64,000 bases of DNA from Escherichia phage FV3, in the sequence record NC_019517.1. The stretch is one strand, 5' to 3'. Shown here piece after piece: positions 2,920 through 63,304 of the stretch. Every line of letters begins with the position of its first letter. Positions within the stretch are counted from its first letter, which is position 1. Under the pieces are notes generated by a model. It worked only from the letters and a program-made list of their open reading frames with translations, was not told the origin of the DNA and did no database searches. The translations under genes and the position numbers were made by a program.

Positions 2920-4104
2920 TCAAGCTTTAGCTAAAATGGCGCTAAACTCTTCGCCAAACTCTTTTACAATCTTCATCAGGTTCGGGTATGCTTTGATCAG
3001 CTGAGCAACGATCTTGTCCCGGCCTTTACCAATAAGTAAGGCATTTCCTAGGGCGTTGGGTTTCATCATCGCCATAAAGACTGAGAATACAAAGTCTCGG
3101 TTCTCATCCTTGAAATTTTCCCAAAGGAAATCAAGGAAGTTTGCCACACAGCTGACAAGATCTTCGTCGGAGATACTTGCATTTTCCATCATGTTACGAA
3201 TAGCGATACACCCTTCAGACCCCAGAATCCACAAGATGTCTGGCTGCTTAGGCCCTACATACTCTTTGCAACCCCCTGCCATAATCCGACCGATTTCTGG
3301 CAAGTTTCGTTTCTTGGTGTGGTAGGTCCAGATTTCTACCGCTGCAGTGTGACCGATAGCACCTTGCAGAAGAACACGAGCCATAGCGTCAGAAATAATA
3401 CCGCTGTCAAAATCGTGCAGGATGTCAGATGCAGCAACCCAAGATCGCGGTGTAGCAAAAGCTGGACAATTAATCTCAGCCATGGCCTCATAATTATCGA
3501 TGGCTGATGGGACTCTTTTCAGATATCCAATTACCGAGGAGTGCACCCCATTAAGGAATGCATAGTCCTCAATAAACACCTCTGCATTGCTTGTAACTTC
3601 TACAATGATAAAGCGGTTAGCTAGAGGAGCTTCGAGCGCCGAAAGAACAGCACCGTCTGTAGCACGGTTACCTGCAGCTACAAAAACAGAGCCCTTAGGA
3701 AATGCATAGGTGCCGCACTTGTGGTCGAGCATAATTTGCATTGCAACCTTCTGCAGGTAGTTATCTGCATGAGTAAGCTCATCCAGAAAGATAATTCCGC
3801 TCCAGTTCGAGTCTGCAGGCCAAAATTCTGGAATTGCAAACACTGTGCGTGTAGTTCCATCTGCCTCTACAGGGATAGGTAGTCCAGATAAGTCAGCAGG
3901 ATCTTTATCTGACAGCCGCACGTCAACCAGGTTGTCATCTCGCTCACCGAACATATTATCAGCAATCTGCTTCATCACCTGACTCTTCCCCACACCCATC
4001 GGTCCTAAAATAAGAACAGATCGGTTATGACGCTGGGCAAATTGAATAATAGCTGGCAACTCGCGGACAGTGATTTGACCACTTTCGAATACGTTTCTTG
4101 ACAT
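2920..4104 (-). CDS. MoxR-like AAA+ ATPase (CobS/MoxR family, AAA_5-type)
   Basis: Walker A GPMGVGKS, Walker B IIFLDELTHAD, sensor AAGNRA; 394 aa with C-terminal extension. Confidence 0.7.
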   Translation of the reverse strand: MSRNVFESGQITVRELPAIIQFAQRHNRSVLILGPMGVGKSQVMKQIADNMFGERDDNLVDVRLSDKDPADLSGLPIPVEADGTTRTVFAIPEFWPADSNWSGIIFLDELTHADNYLQKVAMQIMLDHKCGTYAFPKGSVFVAAGNRATDGAVLSALEAPLANRFIIVEVTSNAEVFIEDYAFLNGVHSSVIGYLKRVPSAIDNYEAMAEINCPAFATPRSWVAASDILHDFDSGIISDAMARVLLQGAIGHTAAVEIWTYHTKKRNLPEIGRIMAGGCKEYVGPKQPDILWILGSEGCIAIRNMMENASISDEDLVSCVANFLDFLWENFKDENRDFVFSVFMAMMKPNALGNALLIGKGRDKIVAQLIKAYPNLMKIVKEFGEEFSAILAKA

Positions 4105-5435: not shown

Positions 5436-5706
5436 CTGTCATTTTACATTCTTGAAATTTTAACACAAGACGGTGATTGTGTCTAGTGTCTAAAAAGATT
5501 TTTTCGACCATCAGGCACACGGTATAACCGTCCGTCTTGTTGACAACAAAATCCCCAGGGTGAGGGAGAATGTCTCCTGGATTGGGGAAACATAACCCGC
5601 TCAAGAAGGCATCGTCGGTGGTGGACTTAATGGATTTCCACACACTATCTGCCTGAACATTCTCACCAACATAATATACACTACCACATGACTTCATCAT
5701 AGTCAA
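5428..5706 (-). CDS. Hypothetical protein (92 aa)
   Basis: ORF overlapping neighbours by 8 and 4 nt (translational coupling). Confidence 0.4.
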   Translation of the reverse strand: MTMMKSCGSVYYVGENVQADSVWKSIKSTTDDAFLSGLCFPNPGDILPHPGDFVVNKTDGYTVCLMVEKIFLDTRHNHRLVLKFQECKMTVA

Positions 5707-6602
5707 ATCTCCGCGTAAATTAAACTGGAATCAGTATACTTCTTTAACGGGTAAATATCCTGTCCGTAGATGCCGTCATTAAACACCTCATCTACCCAAA
5801 GACTGCACTTATATCCCATCATTTCTAAAACACCCAGCTCTTCTTCGGTAAACTTATCACCGCTCTTGCAAGATGTCAACACCTCATTCTGTACTCTTGC
5901 TACCTCGAAGCGATTATTGGCAATATCGCTATTGGCGATCAAATACTCACCTAAAGGGTGTGCGGCATTAAAGATGCACAGTGGACGGTTGACGTAATAG
6001 TCTCCAGGCGTATAAAAATTGTTGAGGTCTTTTACCAGAACATTCTTATCAGTCACTTCATTTATAACATCATGCATATCGCACATCTTTATATGTTTGA
6101 GGATTCCATCCCCCATCACAAAATAAAAACTTGCTGAGACACTTTCGGCATAGATCTTACTAGATCCATTGTAGTTGTATTTTACTCGGATGCTTACAGG
6201 GGTTTTGCCTGTCGCGTTAGCCATCATCCAAAGGAACGGAAGTTCAAACTTCTGCTCTGAGGAAACAAAAGGTGAAGTTGCCAGAGATCGGAAACCACCA
6301 GAGAAGTTGAAAGTTACAGAGCCGCTCCGGCGATATGATACCGCATATTCTACTTTTATATCGACATAGCCGTTGGAGTAAGTGTGGCCTCCATTATCCA
6401 GATATGTCCACTTATCAGATCCGGATACCAACCTACGCTCAATCACCTTCATTACTACAGGAATTAGCGGGTTGGTACAAACCGATTTTGAAGTAGCTTT
6501 ATCATCCAAAGCCTCGTAAATTGCAGAAAGGATATCGCCTGCTGAGAGATTGGTTGTGATATCTTGTTTCCACCGAGTGCTAAAGCTGTTAAGATTTGCC
6601 AT
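5703..6602 (-). CDS. Hypothetical protein (300 aa), first gene of leftward early operon
   Basis: Start trimmed to the ATG (MANLNS...) preceded by AGGAG RBS; the track ORF extended to 6644 would overlap the promoter. Confidence 0.45.
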   Translation of the reverse strand: MANLNSFSTRWKQDITTNLSAGDILSAIYEALDDKATSKSVCTNPLIPVVMKVIERRLVSGSDKWTYLDNGGHTYSNGYVDIKVEYAVSYRRSGSVTFNFSGGFRSLATSPFVSSEQKFELPFLWMMANATGKTPVSIRVKYNYNGSSKIYAESVSASFYFVMGDGILKHIKMCDMHDVINEVTDKNVLVKDLNNFYTPGDYYVNRPLCIFNAAHPLGEYLIANSDIANNRFEVARVQNEVLTSCKSGDKFTEEELGVLEMMGYKCSLWVDEVFNDGIYGQDIYPLKKYTDSSLIYAEI

Positions 6603-6642
6603 GATTAAGTGCTCCTGTGTTCGTTTTCTTTCGAATGGGTGC

Positions 6643-6671
6643 ACTATATCGTGGATTTAGAGTAAAGTCAA
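6643..6671 (-). promoter_or_regulatory. Sigma70-like promoter for leftward early operon (-35 TTGACT, 17-nt spacer, -10 TATAGT)
   Basis: Minus-strand reading TTGACT-N17-TATAGT about 40 nt upstream of AGGAG RBS and the ATG at 6602. Confidence 0.45.
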
Positions 6672-6684
6672 CACGTTTTTGAGG

Positions 6685-6713
6685 TTGACATCTGTTGAGG
6701 CACTTGATAAGAT
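6685..6713 (+). promoter_or_regulatory. Sigma70-like promoter for rightward early operon (-35 TTGACA, 17-nt spacer, -10 TAAGAT)
   Basis: TTGACA at 6685-6690 and TAAGAT at 6708-6713; back-to-back with the leftward promoter. Confidence 0.4.
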
Positions 6714-6744
6714 TTCTTCACCTACAGAGCACAAGAGACAACTC

Positions 6745-7734
6745 ATGAATCTTGAAAAATATTATACACCAGAAGAGTTAGAGCGCCTGCTCAAAAAATA
6801 TAGACGCAAACAAAATAATGCACGGAAACGAGATATAGAGTTCAACCTGTCATGGGAAGAATACCTCCTATTTGGTAAAAAACTTTTAGGAGAGGGGGTG
6901 TGCGACTATACCCTTATACCTTTTGACATGCACACAGATGAAAACGGGTTGGGGAATCCTTTCTATCCATCCTTAGAGCGGATAGATGATGAAGGTCCTT
7001 ATGCGGTTGATAATTGTTGTGTGGTGGGATTGAGATGCAACTCTCTAAAGGACTGTCTGGTAGATAAAAAGACCGCAGTCTTGATTAAAGACAAAACTGA
7101 TCGAAAAATTGTCCAGCAGATGATGCTCCACCTGAGCGAAGAGCGCATGGAGAAATTGAAAGGTGATTACACTTTTGAAGATTTCATCTTGCAATACGGA
7201 ACGGAAGAGGATAAACTAGCACTCTTTGACGAAGAATGGGAGGAAGATATGTCACCAATGCAGGATTTTAAAAACTTCATGGCTAATCGTGGAGCCAACA
7301 AGCACATTTCTGACATTGTAAACGAGACTGTAGCAGAGGAGAATGAAGAAATGGCGCAACAGGCTTACGAAGAGGAAAAAGAGCCTCAGGGGGTCGAAGA
7401 AGGGCTTACAGAAGAGGTTCCTGCACTGCCTGACGATGTTGAGATTGCCAAAGCTTACACTTTCTATTGCCAGACGTTCTACGATGCAGGTATGAAAGTT
7501 GATCTGTCATTCAGTCAGTTTAAGAGCACGTATATTCGAAAATGTTGTGCTTTAACTGGTGAGCGTCTCGGGACCGGACTTAAACCACTATTAGTGACCG
7601 ATTGGAATAAAGGTTTCACCAAAGGTAACTTTATGGTAGTATCTCCAATTATGGAAAAGGCTATGACAGACCTTATGAAGACCACCCGCATGACAATGAC
7701 CGAGTTGGCTGGTATTTTCAAGCACGTTAAATAA
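6745..7734 (+). CDS. Hypothetical protein with endonuclease VII / HNH-like Zn-finger nuclease-fold motif
   Basis: Start set at ATG 6745 downstream of the promoter. Motif CDYT...HTDEN...ERIDDEGPY...NCCVVGLRCNSLK resembles T4 EndoVII HLDHDHELNGP...VRGLLCNLCN, but the catalytic His positions are not conserved; acidic middle region. Confidence 0.4.
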   Translation: MNLEKYYTPEELERLLKKYRRKQNNARKRDIEFNLSWEEYLLFGKKLLGEGVCDYTLIPFDMHTDENGLGNPFYPSLERIDDEGPYAVDNCCVVGLRCNSLKDCLVDKKTAVLIKDKTDRKIVQQMMLHLSEERMEKLKGDYTFEDFILQYGTEEDKLALFDEEWEEDMSPMQDFKNFMANRGANKHISDIVNETVAEENEEMAQQAYEEEKEPQGVEEGLTEEVPALPDDVEIAKAYTFYCQTFYDAGMKVDLSFSQFKSTYIRKCCALTGERLGTGLKPLLVTDWNKGFTKGNFMVVSPIMEKAMTDLMKTTRMTMTELAGIFKHVK

Positions 7735-7766
7735 TGACAGGGGCCAAGGCCCCTTCTGGAGTTTTA

Positions 7767-9227
7767 ATGGATAGCAGAAGTTCAGAAATCATTGCCGCAC
7801 AAAAAGATGACGCCTTGCGAATGCTGCAGGCAGCACGTATGTATCTTCTTGAAAAACTGCCGTTTTATGGCACACTGTTGTCAGGGTTGCAGTTCGTAGA
7901 AAACCACACATGGTGCTCCACCATGGCAACAGACCATAAACGCATTTATTACAGCCCTGAGTTCATTATGGGATTGGCGGATGAGCGCAAAACCATTCTT
8001 AAAGCATCTTTGACTGACAAGCAGTTTGAGATGGCTGAGGTTTTCTATTCCCCAAAATCTGTGAAAGAGGTGGCATTTCTTCTATCGCATGAGGTGGGGC
8101 ATATTATCTGTGATCATCTGGTCCGTGGCAAAAGTTTTGAGCCGGAGCTGTTCAATATTGCCTGTGATCATGTTATCAACACAGGTCTTGTGGTTGACTT
8201 TAGCAAGCCCCCTTGTGTTTTCTTCCCGAAGGGGAAAAGCACTACGTTTGTAAAAGGTAAGCCTTTTGGCTTCTTAGCTAGTTGCTACTGTGACATGAGG
8301 TTCCATGGATGGATTGCTGAGAACGTCTATGCGGTTCTTGATAAGCAAAGAGATCAGAATAGCGGTAAAAGTAAGAACGGTAAAGGCGAGAACTCTCAAG
8401 GAGATAAACGACAAACCGACGATCACATGAGTGGTAACGGTGGCACTAGTGATGATCTTGGAAAGGCGATGGGGTATGATCAGCCACAACCAGTGATCAG
8501 CCAATCTGATAAGGATCAAGCCATGCAGGACTCTGGTGACATGTTGGAAGCAGCAATGCAGGCTTCCGGAGGTCGTTGCCCTGAGGCTGTGCGTGAGTTT
8601 GTCAAGAACAGAGGTAAGCCTGTAATCAATTATATAGACATCATTAAACAACGTATGCTGTCTAAACGAAAGGCTGAACTAACCTATAGAAAACCCGGTC
8701 GCCGATCTGGGTCTTTGACCAGCACAATGCGAAAAGTTGGAGCTATAAACAAGAATCAGCACGTTGTTGTTCCTGGTCGTAATCCGGAAAACACTATAGA
8801 TATTGTGGTGGCTTTAGACGTTTCTGGATCGATCTCACAAAGAACTTTAAAGAAAATGTTCAATGAGATCACTGGGTTGTGCAATCTGTATAAAGAGTTC
8901 AAGGTTACGATGTTCTGTTGGTCAACTGAGGTTGGAGAGGTTAAAGTATACACTCGCGGGAACATCGACGAGATGATCAACTACGAGGTCCACTCAACAT
9001 GGGGCACAACAGCCGCTTGCGTGTTCGAGTATCTGGACGCTAACATACCAAATGCAAAAGATGTCATCGTCCTGACCGACCTCTACTTTGAGCACAACTT
9101 TGAACAAAAGGTTGTTGACAACAAGTGGAAAAAGTACGATACTTTATGGGTTCTCACCGAAGGGTATAATAAAAATTATATCCCAAGCTTTGGGAAAACT
9201 GTAGAATTGATCGAGTACGCTAAATAA
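7767..9227 (+). CDS. Putative metallopeptidase (HExxH) domain + von Willebrand factor A domain protein (DUF2201/CobT-like MoxR partner)
   Basis: HEVGHIICDH zinc-peptidase-like motif in N-terminal half; MIDAS motif DVSGSIS in C-terminal half; start set at ATG 7767 with GGAG RBS (alternative ATG at 7734). Confidence 0.65.
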   Translation: MDSRSSEIIAAQKDDALRMLQAARMYLLEKLPFYGTLLSGLQFVENHTWCSTMATDHKRIYYSPEFIMGLADERKTILKASLTDKQFEMAEVFYSPKSVKEVAFLLSHEVGHIICDHLVRGKSFEPELFNIACDHVINTGLVVDFSKPPCVFFPKGKSTTFVKGKPFGFLASCYCDMRFHGWIAENVYAVLDKQRDQNSGKSKNGKGENSQGDKRQTDDHMSGNGGTSDDLGKAMGYDQPQPVISQSDKDQAMQDSGDMLEAAMQASGGRCPEAVREFVKNRGKPVINYIDIIKQRMLSKRKAELTYRKPGRRSGSLTSTMRKVGAINKNQHVVVPGRNPENTIDIVVALDVSGSISQRTLKKMFNEITGLCNLYKEFKVTMFCWSTEVGEVKVYTRGNIDEMINYEVHSTWGTTAACVFEYLDANIPNAKDVIVLTDLYFEHNFEQKVVDNKWKKYDTLWVLTEGYNKNYIPSFGKTVELIEYAK

Positions 9228-63115: not shown

Positions 63116-63304
63116 TCAACAGATTCCGGCCTTATCCCTCCTGTCTGCGTATTCTTTAATCGCAACCTCACCTGCATTGGTAACCAGATCTTCAAAGTAA
63201 TTCTCAAGCTCCTCGTCAATGTCCGGTGACCAGCTCTTTTTCCTGTCAGTGTGAATTGCAGACTTGTTGAACTTATTACAGTTCTTTGCTACCGGATTGT
63301 TCAT
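63116..63304 (-). CDS. Hypothetical small protein (62 aa)
   Basis: Short ORF in gene-dense region. Confidence 0.3.
   Translation of the reverse strand: MNNPVAKNCNKFNKSAIHTDRKKSWSPDIDEELENYFEDLVTNAGEVAIKEYADRRDKAGIC

Follow-up and report, generated by a model that had tools for sequence, protein, structure and literature searches.

Introduction

The closest described system is found in phage rV5, for which Kropinski et al. 2013 (Virol J 10:76, Table S4; PMC3606486) list two neighboring promoters, P010 at 6636..6681 on the minus strand and P011 at 6685..6713 on the plus strand. They are given there as ...TTGACT TTACTCTAAATCTCCGA TATAGT... and TTGACATCTGTTGAGACAAT TGATACGAT, respectively, and come from a consensus search, made in silico only and without conservation or an experimental test (PMC3606486). 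The region is orthologous to the one described here in phage FV3, between gene 10 and gene 11 and at the same coordinates, and the divergent pair is thus already known as a published prediction. We use the rV5 names for the FV3 counterparts. The P010 hexamers are the same in both phages (TTGACT-N17-TATAGT), and P011 has the same TTGACA-N17-TGA leading into an extended -10. The differences are a P011 -10 hexamer of TACGAT in rV5 versus TAAGAT in FV3, both variants being present in the clade, and some spacer bases. The P011 sequence published for rV5 occurs unaltered in one metagenomic locus (L019).

Outside this group of phages, several divergent promoter systems invite comparison. In phage lambda, PR and PRM are likewise two back-to-back sigma-70 promoters in which the upstream contacts of each polymerase reach the other promoter, and their starts lie ~82 bp apart, as against ~84 bp predicted in FV3. 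However, the lambda pair is set among three repeated operators, to which CI and Cro bind, and has flanking regulator genes, whereas the FV3 region has no repeated operator-like sites. Unlike lambda, rV5-like phages are described in the literature as lytic. Bidirectional promoters of the symmetry type reportedly share overlapping -10 elements and have starts ~18 bp apart. The likeness lies in divergent transcription, predicted in FV3, from one short region bearing an inverted repeat, but the FV3 -10 hexamers, at 6643-6648 and 6708-6713, lie ~60 bp from each other and it is the -35 hexamers that form the symmetric pair, which places FV3 in a different class.

A nearer match in geometry is the class of back-to-back, non-overlapping divergent promoters (defined in PMC5175336). 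The dmp Po/Pr pair of Pseudomonas putida and the ilvY/ilvC and fepA/fes pairs, the latter two sigma-70 dependent, are also non-overlapping, arranged back-to-back and separated by a short intervening segment, and among these supercoiling-coupled pairs one promoter has the same TTGACT-N17 form as P010 (PMC5175336). Such pairs join a regulator gene to its target operon and respond to signals (PMC5175336), whereas the FV3 pair consists of strong, consensus-type promoters heading long operons. Within the same subfamily as FV3, Certrevirus phages have a sigma-70-like early promoter, AAAA(N3-4)TGTTGAC(N17-19)TATAAT, that clusters in parts of the genome presumed to be early (Buttimer et al. 2020; PMC7344957). 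It shares with the FV3 promoters a host-type logic and a G before TTGAC (GTTGACA in FV3), but it is described as a dispersed family and not as a divergent pair (PMC7344957), and has an A-rich upstream element where FV3 has a short shared T5/A5 tract.

Results

In the 64-kb window, the whole stretch of FV3 DNA that was analysed, both promoters and both leaders lie in a 142-bp divergent intergenic region at 6603..6744, the counterpart of the rV5 gene 10 / gene 11 intergenic region. Its bounds, taken from the sequence reading, are the leftward ATG at 6602-6600 and the rightward ATG at 6745-6747. From the ATG at 6602 to the ATG at 6745 the layout is GATTAAGTGCTCCTGTG...ACTATA-(17)-AGTCAA-CACGTTTTTGAGG-TTGACA-(17, ending TGA)-TAAGAT...ACAACTC. 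The original prediction had described a leftward TTGACT-N17-TATAGT promoter and a rightward TTGACA-N17-TAAGAT promoter with -35 elements 13 bp apart, and sequence reading and consensus scan agree exactly on this arrangement; the range it quotes, 6603-6745, takes in all of the intergenic DNA.

On the minus strand, P010 has its -35 hexamer TTGACT at 6666..6671, a 17-bp spacer at 6649..6665 and its -10 hexamer TATAGT at 6643..6648, a 10/12 match to consensus in the scan. Beyond the -10, positions 6623..6642 on the same strand hold the discriminator, the predicted start (~6636) and the first ~14 transcribed bases (GCACCCATTCGAAAGAAAAC), followed by a Shine-Dalgarno sequence, GGAG, at 6612..6615, 9 nt ahead of the ATG at 6602. 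On the plus strand, P011 has its -35 hexamer TTGACA at 6685..6690 and an extended -10, TGaTAAGAT, at 6705..6713, with the TG at 6705-6706 and the hexamer TAAGAT at 6708-6713. P011 also matches the consensus at 10/12 positions and has the TGn in addition. Its -10 hexamer taken alone is a 4/6 match, for which the TG of the extended -10, at -15/-14, compensates. The predicted P011 leader, placed from the hexamers, runs from ~6720 to 6744 (6720..6744, plus strand) and includes a weak Shine-Dalgarno sequence, AAGAGA, at 6733-6738 on the plus strand. Both promoters thus show what is expected of sigma-70 promoters, near-consensus hexamers, with A second and T sixth in the -10, at a spacing of 17 +/- 1 bp, and P011 is of the extended -10 (TGn) type as well.

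With a customary 7-base interval from -10 to start, transcription is predicted to begin at ~6636 on the minus strand and ~6720 on the plus strand, ~84 bp apart, which gives predicted leaders of 34 nt for P010 and 25 nt for P011 from start to ATG. Each promoter faces the correct gene, 25-34 nt ahead of a start codon that bears a Shine-Dalgarno sequence. Neither the elements nor the predicted transcripts overlap, and the two -35 hexamers are separated by a 13-bp gap (6672..6684, CACG-TTTTT-GAGG in the sequence reading), which puts the pair in the back-to-back, non-overlapping class. At the center of this segment is a T5 tract, 6676-6680 (A5 on the other strand), which falls at -40..-44 of both promoters, equidistant from the two -35 hexamers. 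We take this tract to be a partial fit to the consensus of the proximal UP-element subsite. A distal subsite is impossible because the opposite promoter occupies that DNA. The alpha subunits of both polymerases could make their upstream contact at this one T5 tract.

Earlier start codons were also considered for both first genes. Neither a TTG start at 6679 for the rightward gene nor a GTG start at 6644 for the leftward gene has a ribosome-binding site, and either choice would place a -10 element inside a gene. Substitutions in 6603-6622 among the relatives alter the amino acid in the extended gene 10 frame, and both longer reading frames were rejected. In phage NHEP1 a 50-aa CDS is annotated across the region and is probably spurious.

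The segment 5600-7800 shows 94-97% identity to 116 records of rV5-type (Vequintavirus) phages, and the FV3 sequence is colinear with rV5 variants from the first base. The first leftward gene (5703..6602, minus strand) is the rV5 gene 10 homologue, encoding 299 aa and assigned to phrog_12338; the label 'alpha 1-3 fucosyltransferase' that it bears in some records has no Pfam support. It opens a minus-strand block that continues with several small proteins, a MoxR-type AAA ATPase, SleB and rIIA. The first rightward gene (6745..7734, plus strand) is the rV5 gene 11 homologue, encoding a Srd-like protein of 329 aa, and is followed on the plus strand by a DUF2201 metallopeptidase/VWA protein, small proteins and a polynucleotide kinase (PNK). 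As the flanking blocks are oppositely oriented, the region marks where two operons diverge. GC skew flips at ~6.5 kb and flips back at ~14 kb, at a convergent junction. A replication origin at the divergence point was set aside, since the skew tracks gene orientation and adds no independent evidence for one.

Annotations of the Srd-like gene vary among records and include anti-sigma factor, anti-termination and HNH endonuclease, of which the 'anti-sigma factor' label is not established. The rV5 paper regards gp11 as a probable Srd homologue and postulates a decoy function (PMC3606486), and the account of Qi et al. 2015 given in PMC4980113 reports that T4 Srd activates RNase E against host mRNA. 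Either role, decoy or RNase E activator, would fit an early gene.

The alignment of 12 distinct rV5-clade sequences took in the intergenic region and 150 nt of the gene on either side. Only 1/24 columns vary in the four hexamers, compared with 20/34 columns in the two spacers (Fisher p = 1.5e-5) and 39/100 third codon positions in the flanking genes (p = 5e-4 versus the hexamers). Three hexamers are invariant in all 12 sequences, namely both elements of P010 and the -35 of P011, and the only variable column is the third base of the P011 -10, which is A or C. The spacers are free in sequence and fixed in length: both are 17 bp in 12/12 sequences, and in P010 the spacer varies at 12/17 columns, so its length alone is constrained. 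In the extended -10 of P011, the TG is invariant in 12/12 sequences, and the next base is A or G. The T5 tract is invariant as well, save for a change in length between T5 and T6. These relatives are close (90-97% identity), meaning that the columns of the footprint are not independent events, and comparing spacers and hexamers within the same sequences controls for kinship only in part. Read with that limit, conserved hexamers beside variable spacers are the pattern expected of working promoters, on both strands, and this footprint among relatives is new evidence for promoters that had previously been predicted. It also bears out the claim that the region feeds both operons, as two divergent sigma-70-type promoters head the oppositely transcribed blocks.

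P011 further resembles other promoters of the same phage. Its TGATAAGAT recurs unchanged as the extended -10 of a further intergenic promoter, at 63119, and -10 elements of the TGn-TAAAAT type are common among this phage's intergenic promoters.

Beyond the rV5 clade, a sister clade (L004-7 and L020-23) retains ~65% identity in the Srd-like protein, and its similarity in the intergenic region is nearly all gone. What it retains is AAAGTCAA-(12-14)-TTGACA, together with TATTCT 17 bp leftward and TGnTAnTGT 17 bp rightward. Both promoters are therefore present in recognizable form, as TTGACT-N17-TATTCT and TTGACA-N17-TGnTAnTGT, at the same positions as in the rV5 clade, with the P010 -35 hexamer TTGACT unchanged. 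Of the 33 loci examined, 29 have a TTGACA at a conserved position ahead of the Srd-like gene. Two loci (L031 and L047) have TTGACT there instead, and in one (L036) neither TTGACA nor TTGACT was found upstream of this gene. In phages ChuuTotoro and SSBI34 the TTGACA is found farther upstream, by one to four genes, at the divergent junction itself, and in PVP-SE1 a promoter is annotated at the homologous position.

For a comparison across the subfamily, every site in each divergent intergenic region was scored with a sigma-70 weight matrix, and the best leftward and best rightward sites were taken; intergenic bounds were set manually for three loci (L004, L009 and L024). In FV3, P011 scores 15.1 on the plus strand and P010 14.2 on the minus strand, and the next-best sites in the region reach at most 9.6 and 4.1, respectively. 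The best pair is back-to-back in Seunavirus (PVP-SE1, GAP31, L024 and NINP13076), Mydovirus (BIS47), Henunavirus (L048), Avunavirus (Av-05 and L032) and Certrevirus (CR9, POP17 and PcCB7V), as well as in the Serratia phages ChuuTotoro and Kashira, the Salmonella phage SSBI34 and the locus L031. Two loci have a competing leftward site. In the Henunavirus locus L011 the back-to-back site ties at 10.4 with an opposite-strand site overlapping the rightward promoter; in L034 the back-to-back site comes second (12.4 versus 13.0). The leftward promoter reaches only 8/12 in several genera. That the back-to-back layout is kept across the subfamily is a small new observation from these sequence comparisons.

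The distance between the two -35 hexamers falls into a few sizes. It is 3-4 bp in Seuna-, Mydo-, Henuna-, Avuna- and Certrevirus, in ChuuTotoro and Kashira and in three metagenomic lineages, being 4 bp in Henunavirus and L034 and 3 bp in most genera. In rV5 and the sister clade it is 12-14 bp (among 23 loci, 12 bp in one, 13 bp in 19 and 14 bp in three, the differences reflecting the length of the T tract), and in SSBI34 it is 23 bp. Read out, the sequences consist of GTCAA-CAC and TTGACA with 0, 10 or 20 extra A/T-rich bp between them. The series resembles increments of one helical turn, and increments of that size would leave the two promoters at an unchanged angle to each other.

One alternative builds on this spacing and holds that the angle between the two -35 elements is important, such that the twin promoters form a single architectural unit locked in phase, through cooperative or mutually exclusive binding of polymerases or through shared upstream DNA. 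If so, spacing should change only in steps of about one turn, and the gaps of 3-4, 12-14 and 23 bp, the 0, 10 or 20 extra A/T-rich bp between GTCAA-CAC and TTGACA, and the T5 tract equidistant from both -35 hexamers all agree with that expectation. However, the pattern reflects only about two independent derived changes, and the probability of such sizes arising by chance is ~0.02-0.09 at a tolerance of +/-1 bp, which is not significant; for this reason we treat the spacing as a lead and not as a result. The gap calls also hinge on the best-scoring site, with L011 and L034 having the competing leftward sites described above, and in another back-to-back pair insertions of a half or a full turn made little difference, the coupling there being topological (PMC5175336). 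We regard phase locking as unlikely, although it fares best among the alternatives to a plain pair of host promoters. An extended form is similarly doubtful: a conserved Vequintavirinae module of fixed helical phase, in which polymerases would share or compete for upstream DNA and the block around the P010 start would serve as an extra control point.

That block, 6623-6642, is unusually conserved. Lying over the P010 discriminator and start, it varies at 1/20 columns, compared with 39/100 third codon positions (p = 0.003), and Certrevirus CR9 carries a look-alike, TATAGT-nCACCCAT (TATAGT-TCACCCAT). Together with the conservation of the central T5 tract and of the bases adjoining both -35 hexamers, it would fit a site at which a phage or host regulator shuts off one or both promoters after the early phase. 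The original prediction had gone this way, proposing an early switch and a possible repressor or host-factor operator, and suggesting a search of related phages for conserved operator-like repeats. The sequence does not bear this out. Between 6500 and 6850 only trivial or chance repeats were found, and inside the region the only inverted repeat is GTCAAC/GTTGAC, which consists of the two -35 hexamers with the G preceding each. A direct repeat noted by eye, TTGAGG (6679-6684 and 6696-6701), is lost in three relatives (L016, L018 and L039), and both spacers vary freely. The 6623-6642 block itself has no second copy in the window and no counterpart in the sister clade; open-complex stability, promoter escape or demands on the 5' end of the mRNA may instead account for its conservation. 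Nor did the two flanking and four nearby genes match helix-turn-helix or repressor families in Pfam or PHROGs, a search that small or novel regulators would escape. Neither the repeated operator sites nor the adjacent regulator gene that mark the lambda OR-type switch were found here, and the word 'switch' overstates what can be read from it. An operator-controlled switch is in our judgment improbable, a shade more so than phase locking.

Leader structure gives no further signal. Rfam returned no match at E <= 1 across 6400-6950, and the predicted leaders fold no more stably than shuffled sequences, with z-scores of 0.30 and 0.25, the latter for P011. As a separate observation, inspection by eye for IHF/CRP-type sites gave, with two mismatches to WATCAANNNNTTR, a candidate in the window reading AGTCAACACGTTT, and a Seunavirus candidate reading AATCAAGTGTTGA with one mismatch.

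Consensus matches by themselves are weak evidence. A loose scan finds 45 promoter-like sites in 20 kb, compared with 35 +/- 5.7 in shuffled sequence. Stronger matches are in excess: 38 sites of at least 10/12 occur in the window versus 16.6 +/- 4.3 in first-order Markov simulations, and their density in intergenic DNA (11 in 5.5 kb) is ~4 times that in coding DNA (27 in 58.5 kb). The probability of a match of at least 10/12 on each strand of the 142-bp region is 2e-4 with the composition of the window and 4e-4 with that of the region itself. The frequency of loose matches, the 4/6 hexamer of P011 and the 8/12 leftward promoters of several genera might suggest that only one promoter works, the other being a fortuitous match and the opposite operon being transcribed from elsewhere, but this is very improbable, given that both hexamer pairs are near-invariant beside variable spacers, that the sister clade retains both promoters, that neither first gene has another upstream site of comparable score, and that the blocks diverge and so each needs its own promoter here.

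Discussion

The reading that we favor is that the region very probably contains two non-overlapping, back-to-back promoters of the host sigma-70 type and of the early class, P010 serving the leftward block and P011 the rightward block. What we observe directly are the hexamers, how they are spaced and conserved, and which way the genes on either side point. The start sites and the early timing are inferred, the former from the position of the hexamers and the latter from near-consensus, host-type promoters and from gene content. Our literature search on Vequintavirinae found no mapped transcription start sites, in vitro transcription, transcriptome or time course.

In the mechanism that we propose, host RNA polymerase carrying the housekeeping sigma-70 would read both promoters. 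P010, starting at ~6636 on the minus strand, would drive the leftward block from the gene 10 homologue through MoxR and SleB to rIIA, and P011, starting at ~6720 on the plus strand, would drive the Srd-like gene and then the VWA/metallopeptidase gene. Since P010 and P011 lie close to consensus and do not depend on a phage factor, they should fire on DNA entry, as expected of the early class. With predicted starts only ~84 bp apart, the upstream (alpha-CTD) zone of each polymerase would overlie the -35 region of the other promoter. The two polymerases might then interact, either by competing for the shared upstream DNA or by stimulating each other through transcription-driven supercoiling. By analogy with the supercoiling-coupled bacterial pairs, topological coupling of P010 and P011 is plausible.

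For the spacing, the steps of ~10 bp are a small new observation worth a systematic count. If the promoters do form a fixed-phase module, it would link the expression of both early operons, and the spacing series could then be a natural experiment on two polymerases sharing very short upstream DNA, although support for this is weak.

For annotation, the finding means that two early-type operons of rV5-like phages probably start from one compact region, and it gives evolutionary backing to a prediction formerly based on a consensus match alone. Phages of this type are widely used against E. coli O157, and the segment 6603-6744 would offer a ready-made, compact, bidirectional promoter of host type for phage engineering or reporter insertion.

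Spacing and conservation at the divergent promoters

To compare the distance between the divergent -35 hexamers, we set window positions 6666-6690 against homologous loci from related phages and metagenomes (L008 2923-2951, L012, L013, L014 2283-2363, L044, L049, L051 and L052). Across the Vequintavirinae the gaps fall into classes of 3-4, 12-14 and 23 bp, with a shared layout in which GTCAA-CAC is followed by 0, 10 or 20 bp and then TTGACA. The classes correspond to steps of about one helical turn, arising from only about two independent changes.

A 20-bp block on the minus strand at 6623-6642, GCACCCATTCGAAAGAAAAC, takes in the discriminator of the leftward promoter P010, its predicted start and the first bases transcribed from it. 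Among 12 distinct sequences of the rV5 clade, only one of its 20 columns is variable, a higher conservation than that of the flanking coding DNA, and the block occurs once in the window. Certrevirus CR9 (L049) carries TATAGT-TCACCCAT, which resembles the P010 -10 element together with this block.

In Henunavirus and one metagenomic lineage, an extra leftward promoter-like site of the form TTGAGA/TTGAGG-N16/17-nAAAAT/TATAAT lies on the strand opposite to the rightward promoter (L011 2916-2944; L048 1386-1414; L034 2409-2436). This site overlaps the rightward promoter and scores equally to the back-to-back site.

Possible hairpins around the Srd-like gene

The leader of the Srd-like gene in Seunavirus, Mydovirus and Henunavirus contains a conserved ACGGG-N6-CCCA directly 5' of the Shine-Dalgarno sequence (L008 ~2960-2976, with homologous positions in L009, L011, L012, L024 and L034), in which GGG and CCC would pair as a small hairpin around a variable loop. 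The motif is absent from the rV5-type Srd-like gene leader in the window. Downstream, the Srd-like gene ends with its stop codon at 7732-7734, and the VWA/metallopeptidase gene probably starts at ATG 7767, behind a GGAG. A GC-rich palindrome, GGGGCCAAGGCCCC, sits between the two at 7740-7753, with TTCTGGAGTTTT after it. The palindrome may act as a partial terminator, stabilise the RNA as a hairpin or mark a processing site between genes 11 and 12.

Annotation and gene arrangement

GenBank labels disagree among records for the three flanking genes. Gene 10 (5703-6602) is labelled 'alpha 1-3 fucosyltransferase', for which Pfam gives no support; gene 11 (6745-7734) appears as 'anti-sigma factor', 'anti-termination' or 'HNH endonuclease', and gene 12 (7734-9227) as 'anti-sigma factor', 'HNH endonuclease' or 'metal-dependent peptidase'. 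In phage NHEP1 (PQ511146), an annotated 50-aa minus-strand CDS (L041 990-1142) spans the whole divergent intergenic region, overlapping both promoters, and is probably a spurious gene call. Sixteen 'Campylobacter phage' records (MG0656xx), one of which (L038, MG065644) is marked UNVERIFIED and is without annotation, match E. coli rV5-like phages at 91-96% identity across the divergent region; Campylobacter as their host looks doubtful.

MoxR-type AAA ATPases and VWA-domain/DUF2201 metallopeptidase proteins are usually a functional pair and usually share an operon. In the window, the genes for the MoxR-type ATPase (2920-4104, minus strand) and the VWA/DUF2201 protein (7734/7767-9227, plus strand) are split between two opposite operons that start at the divergent promoter region.
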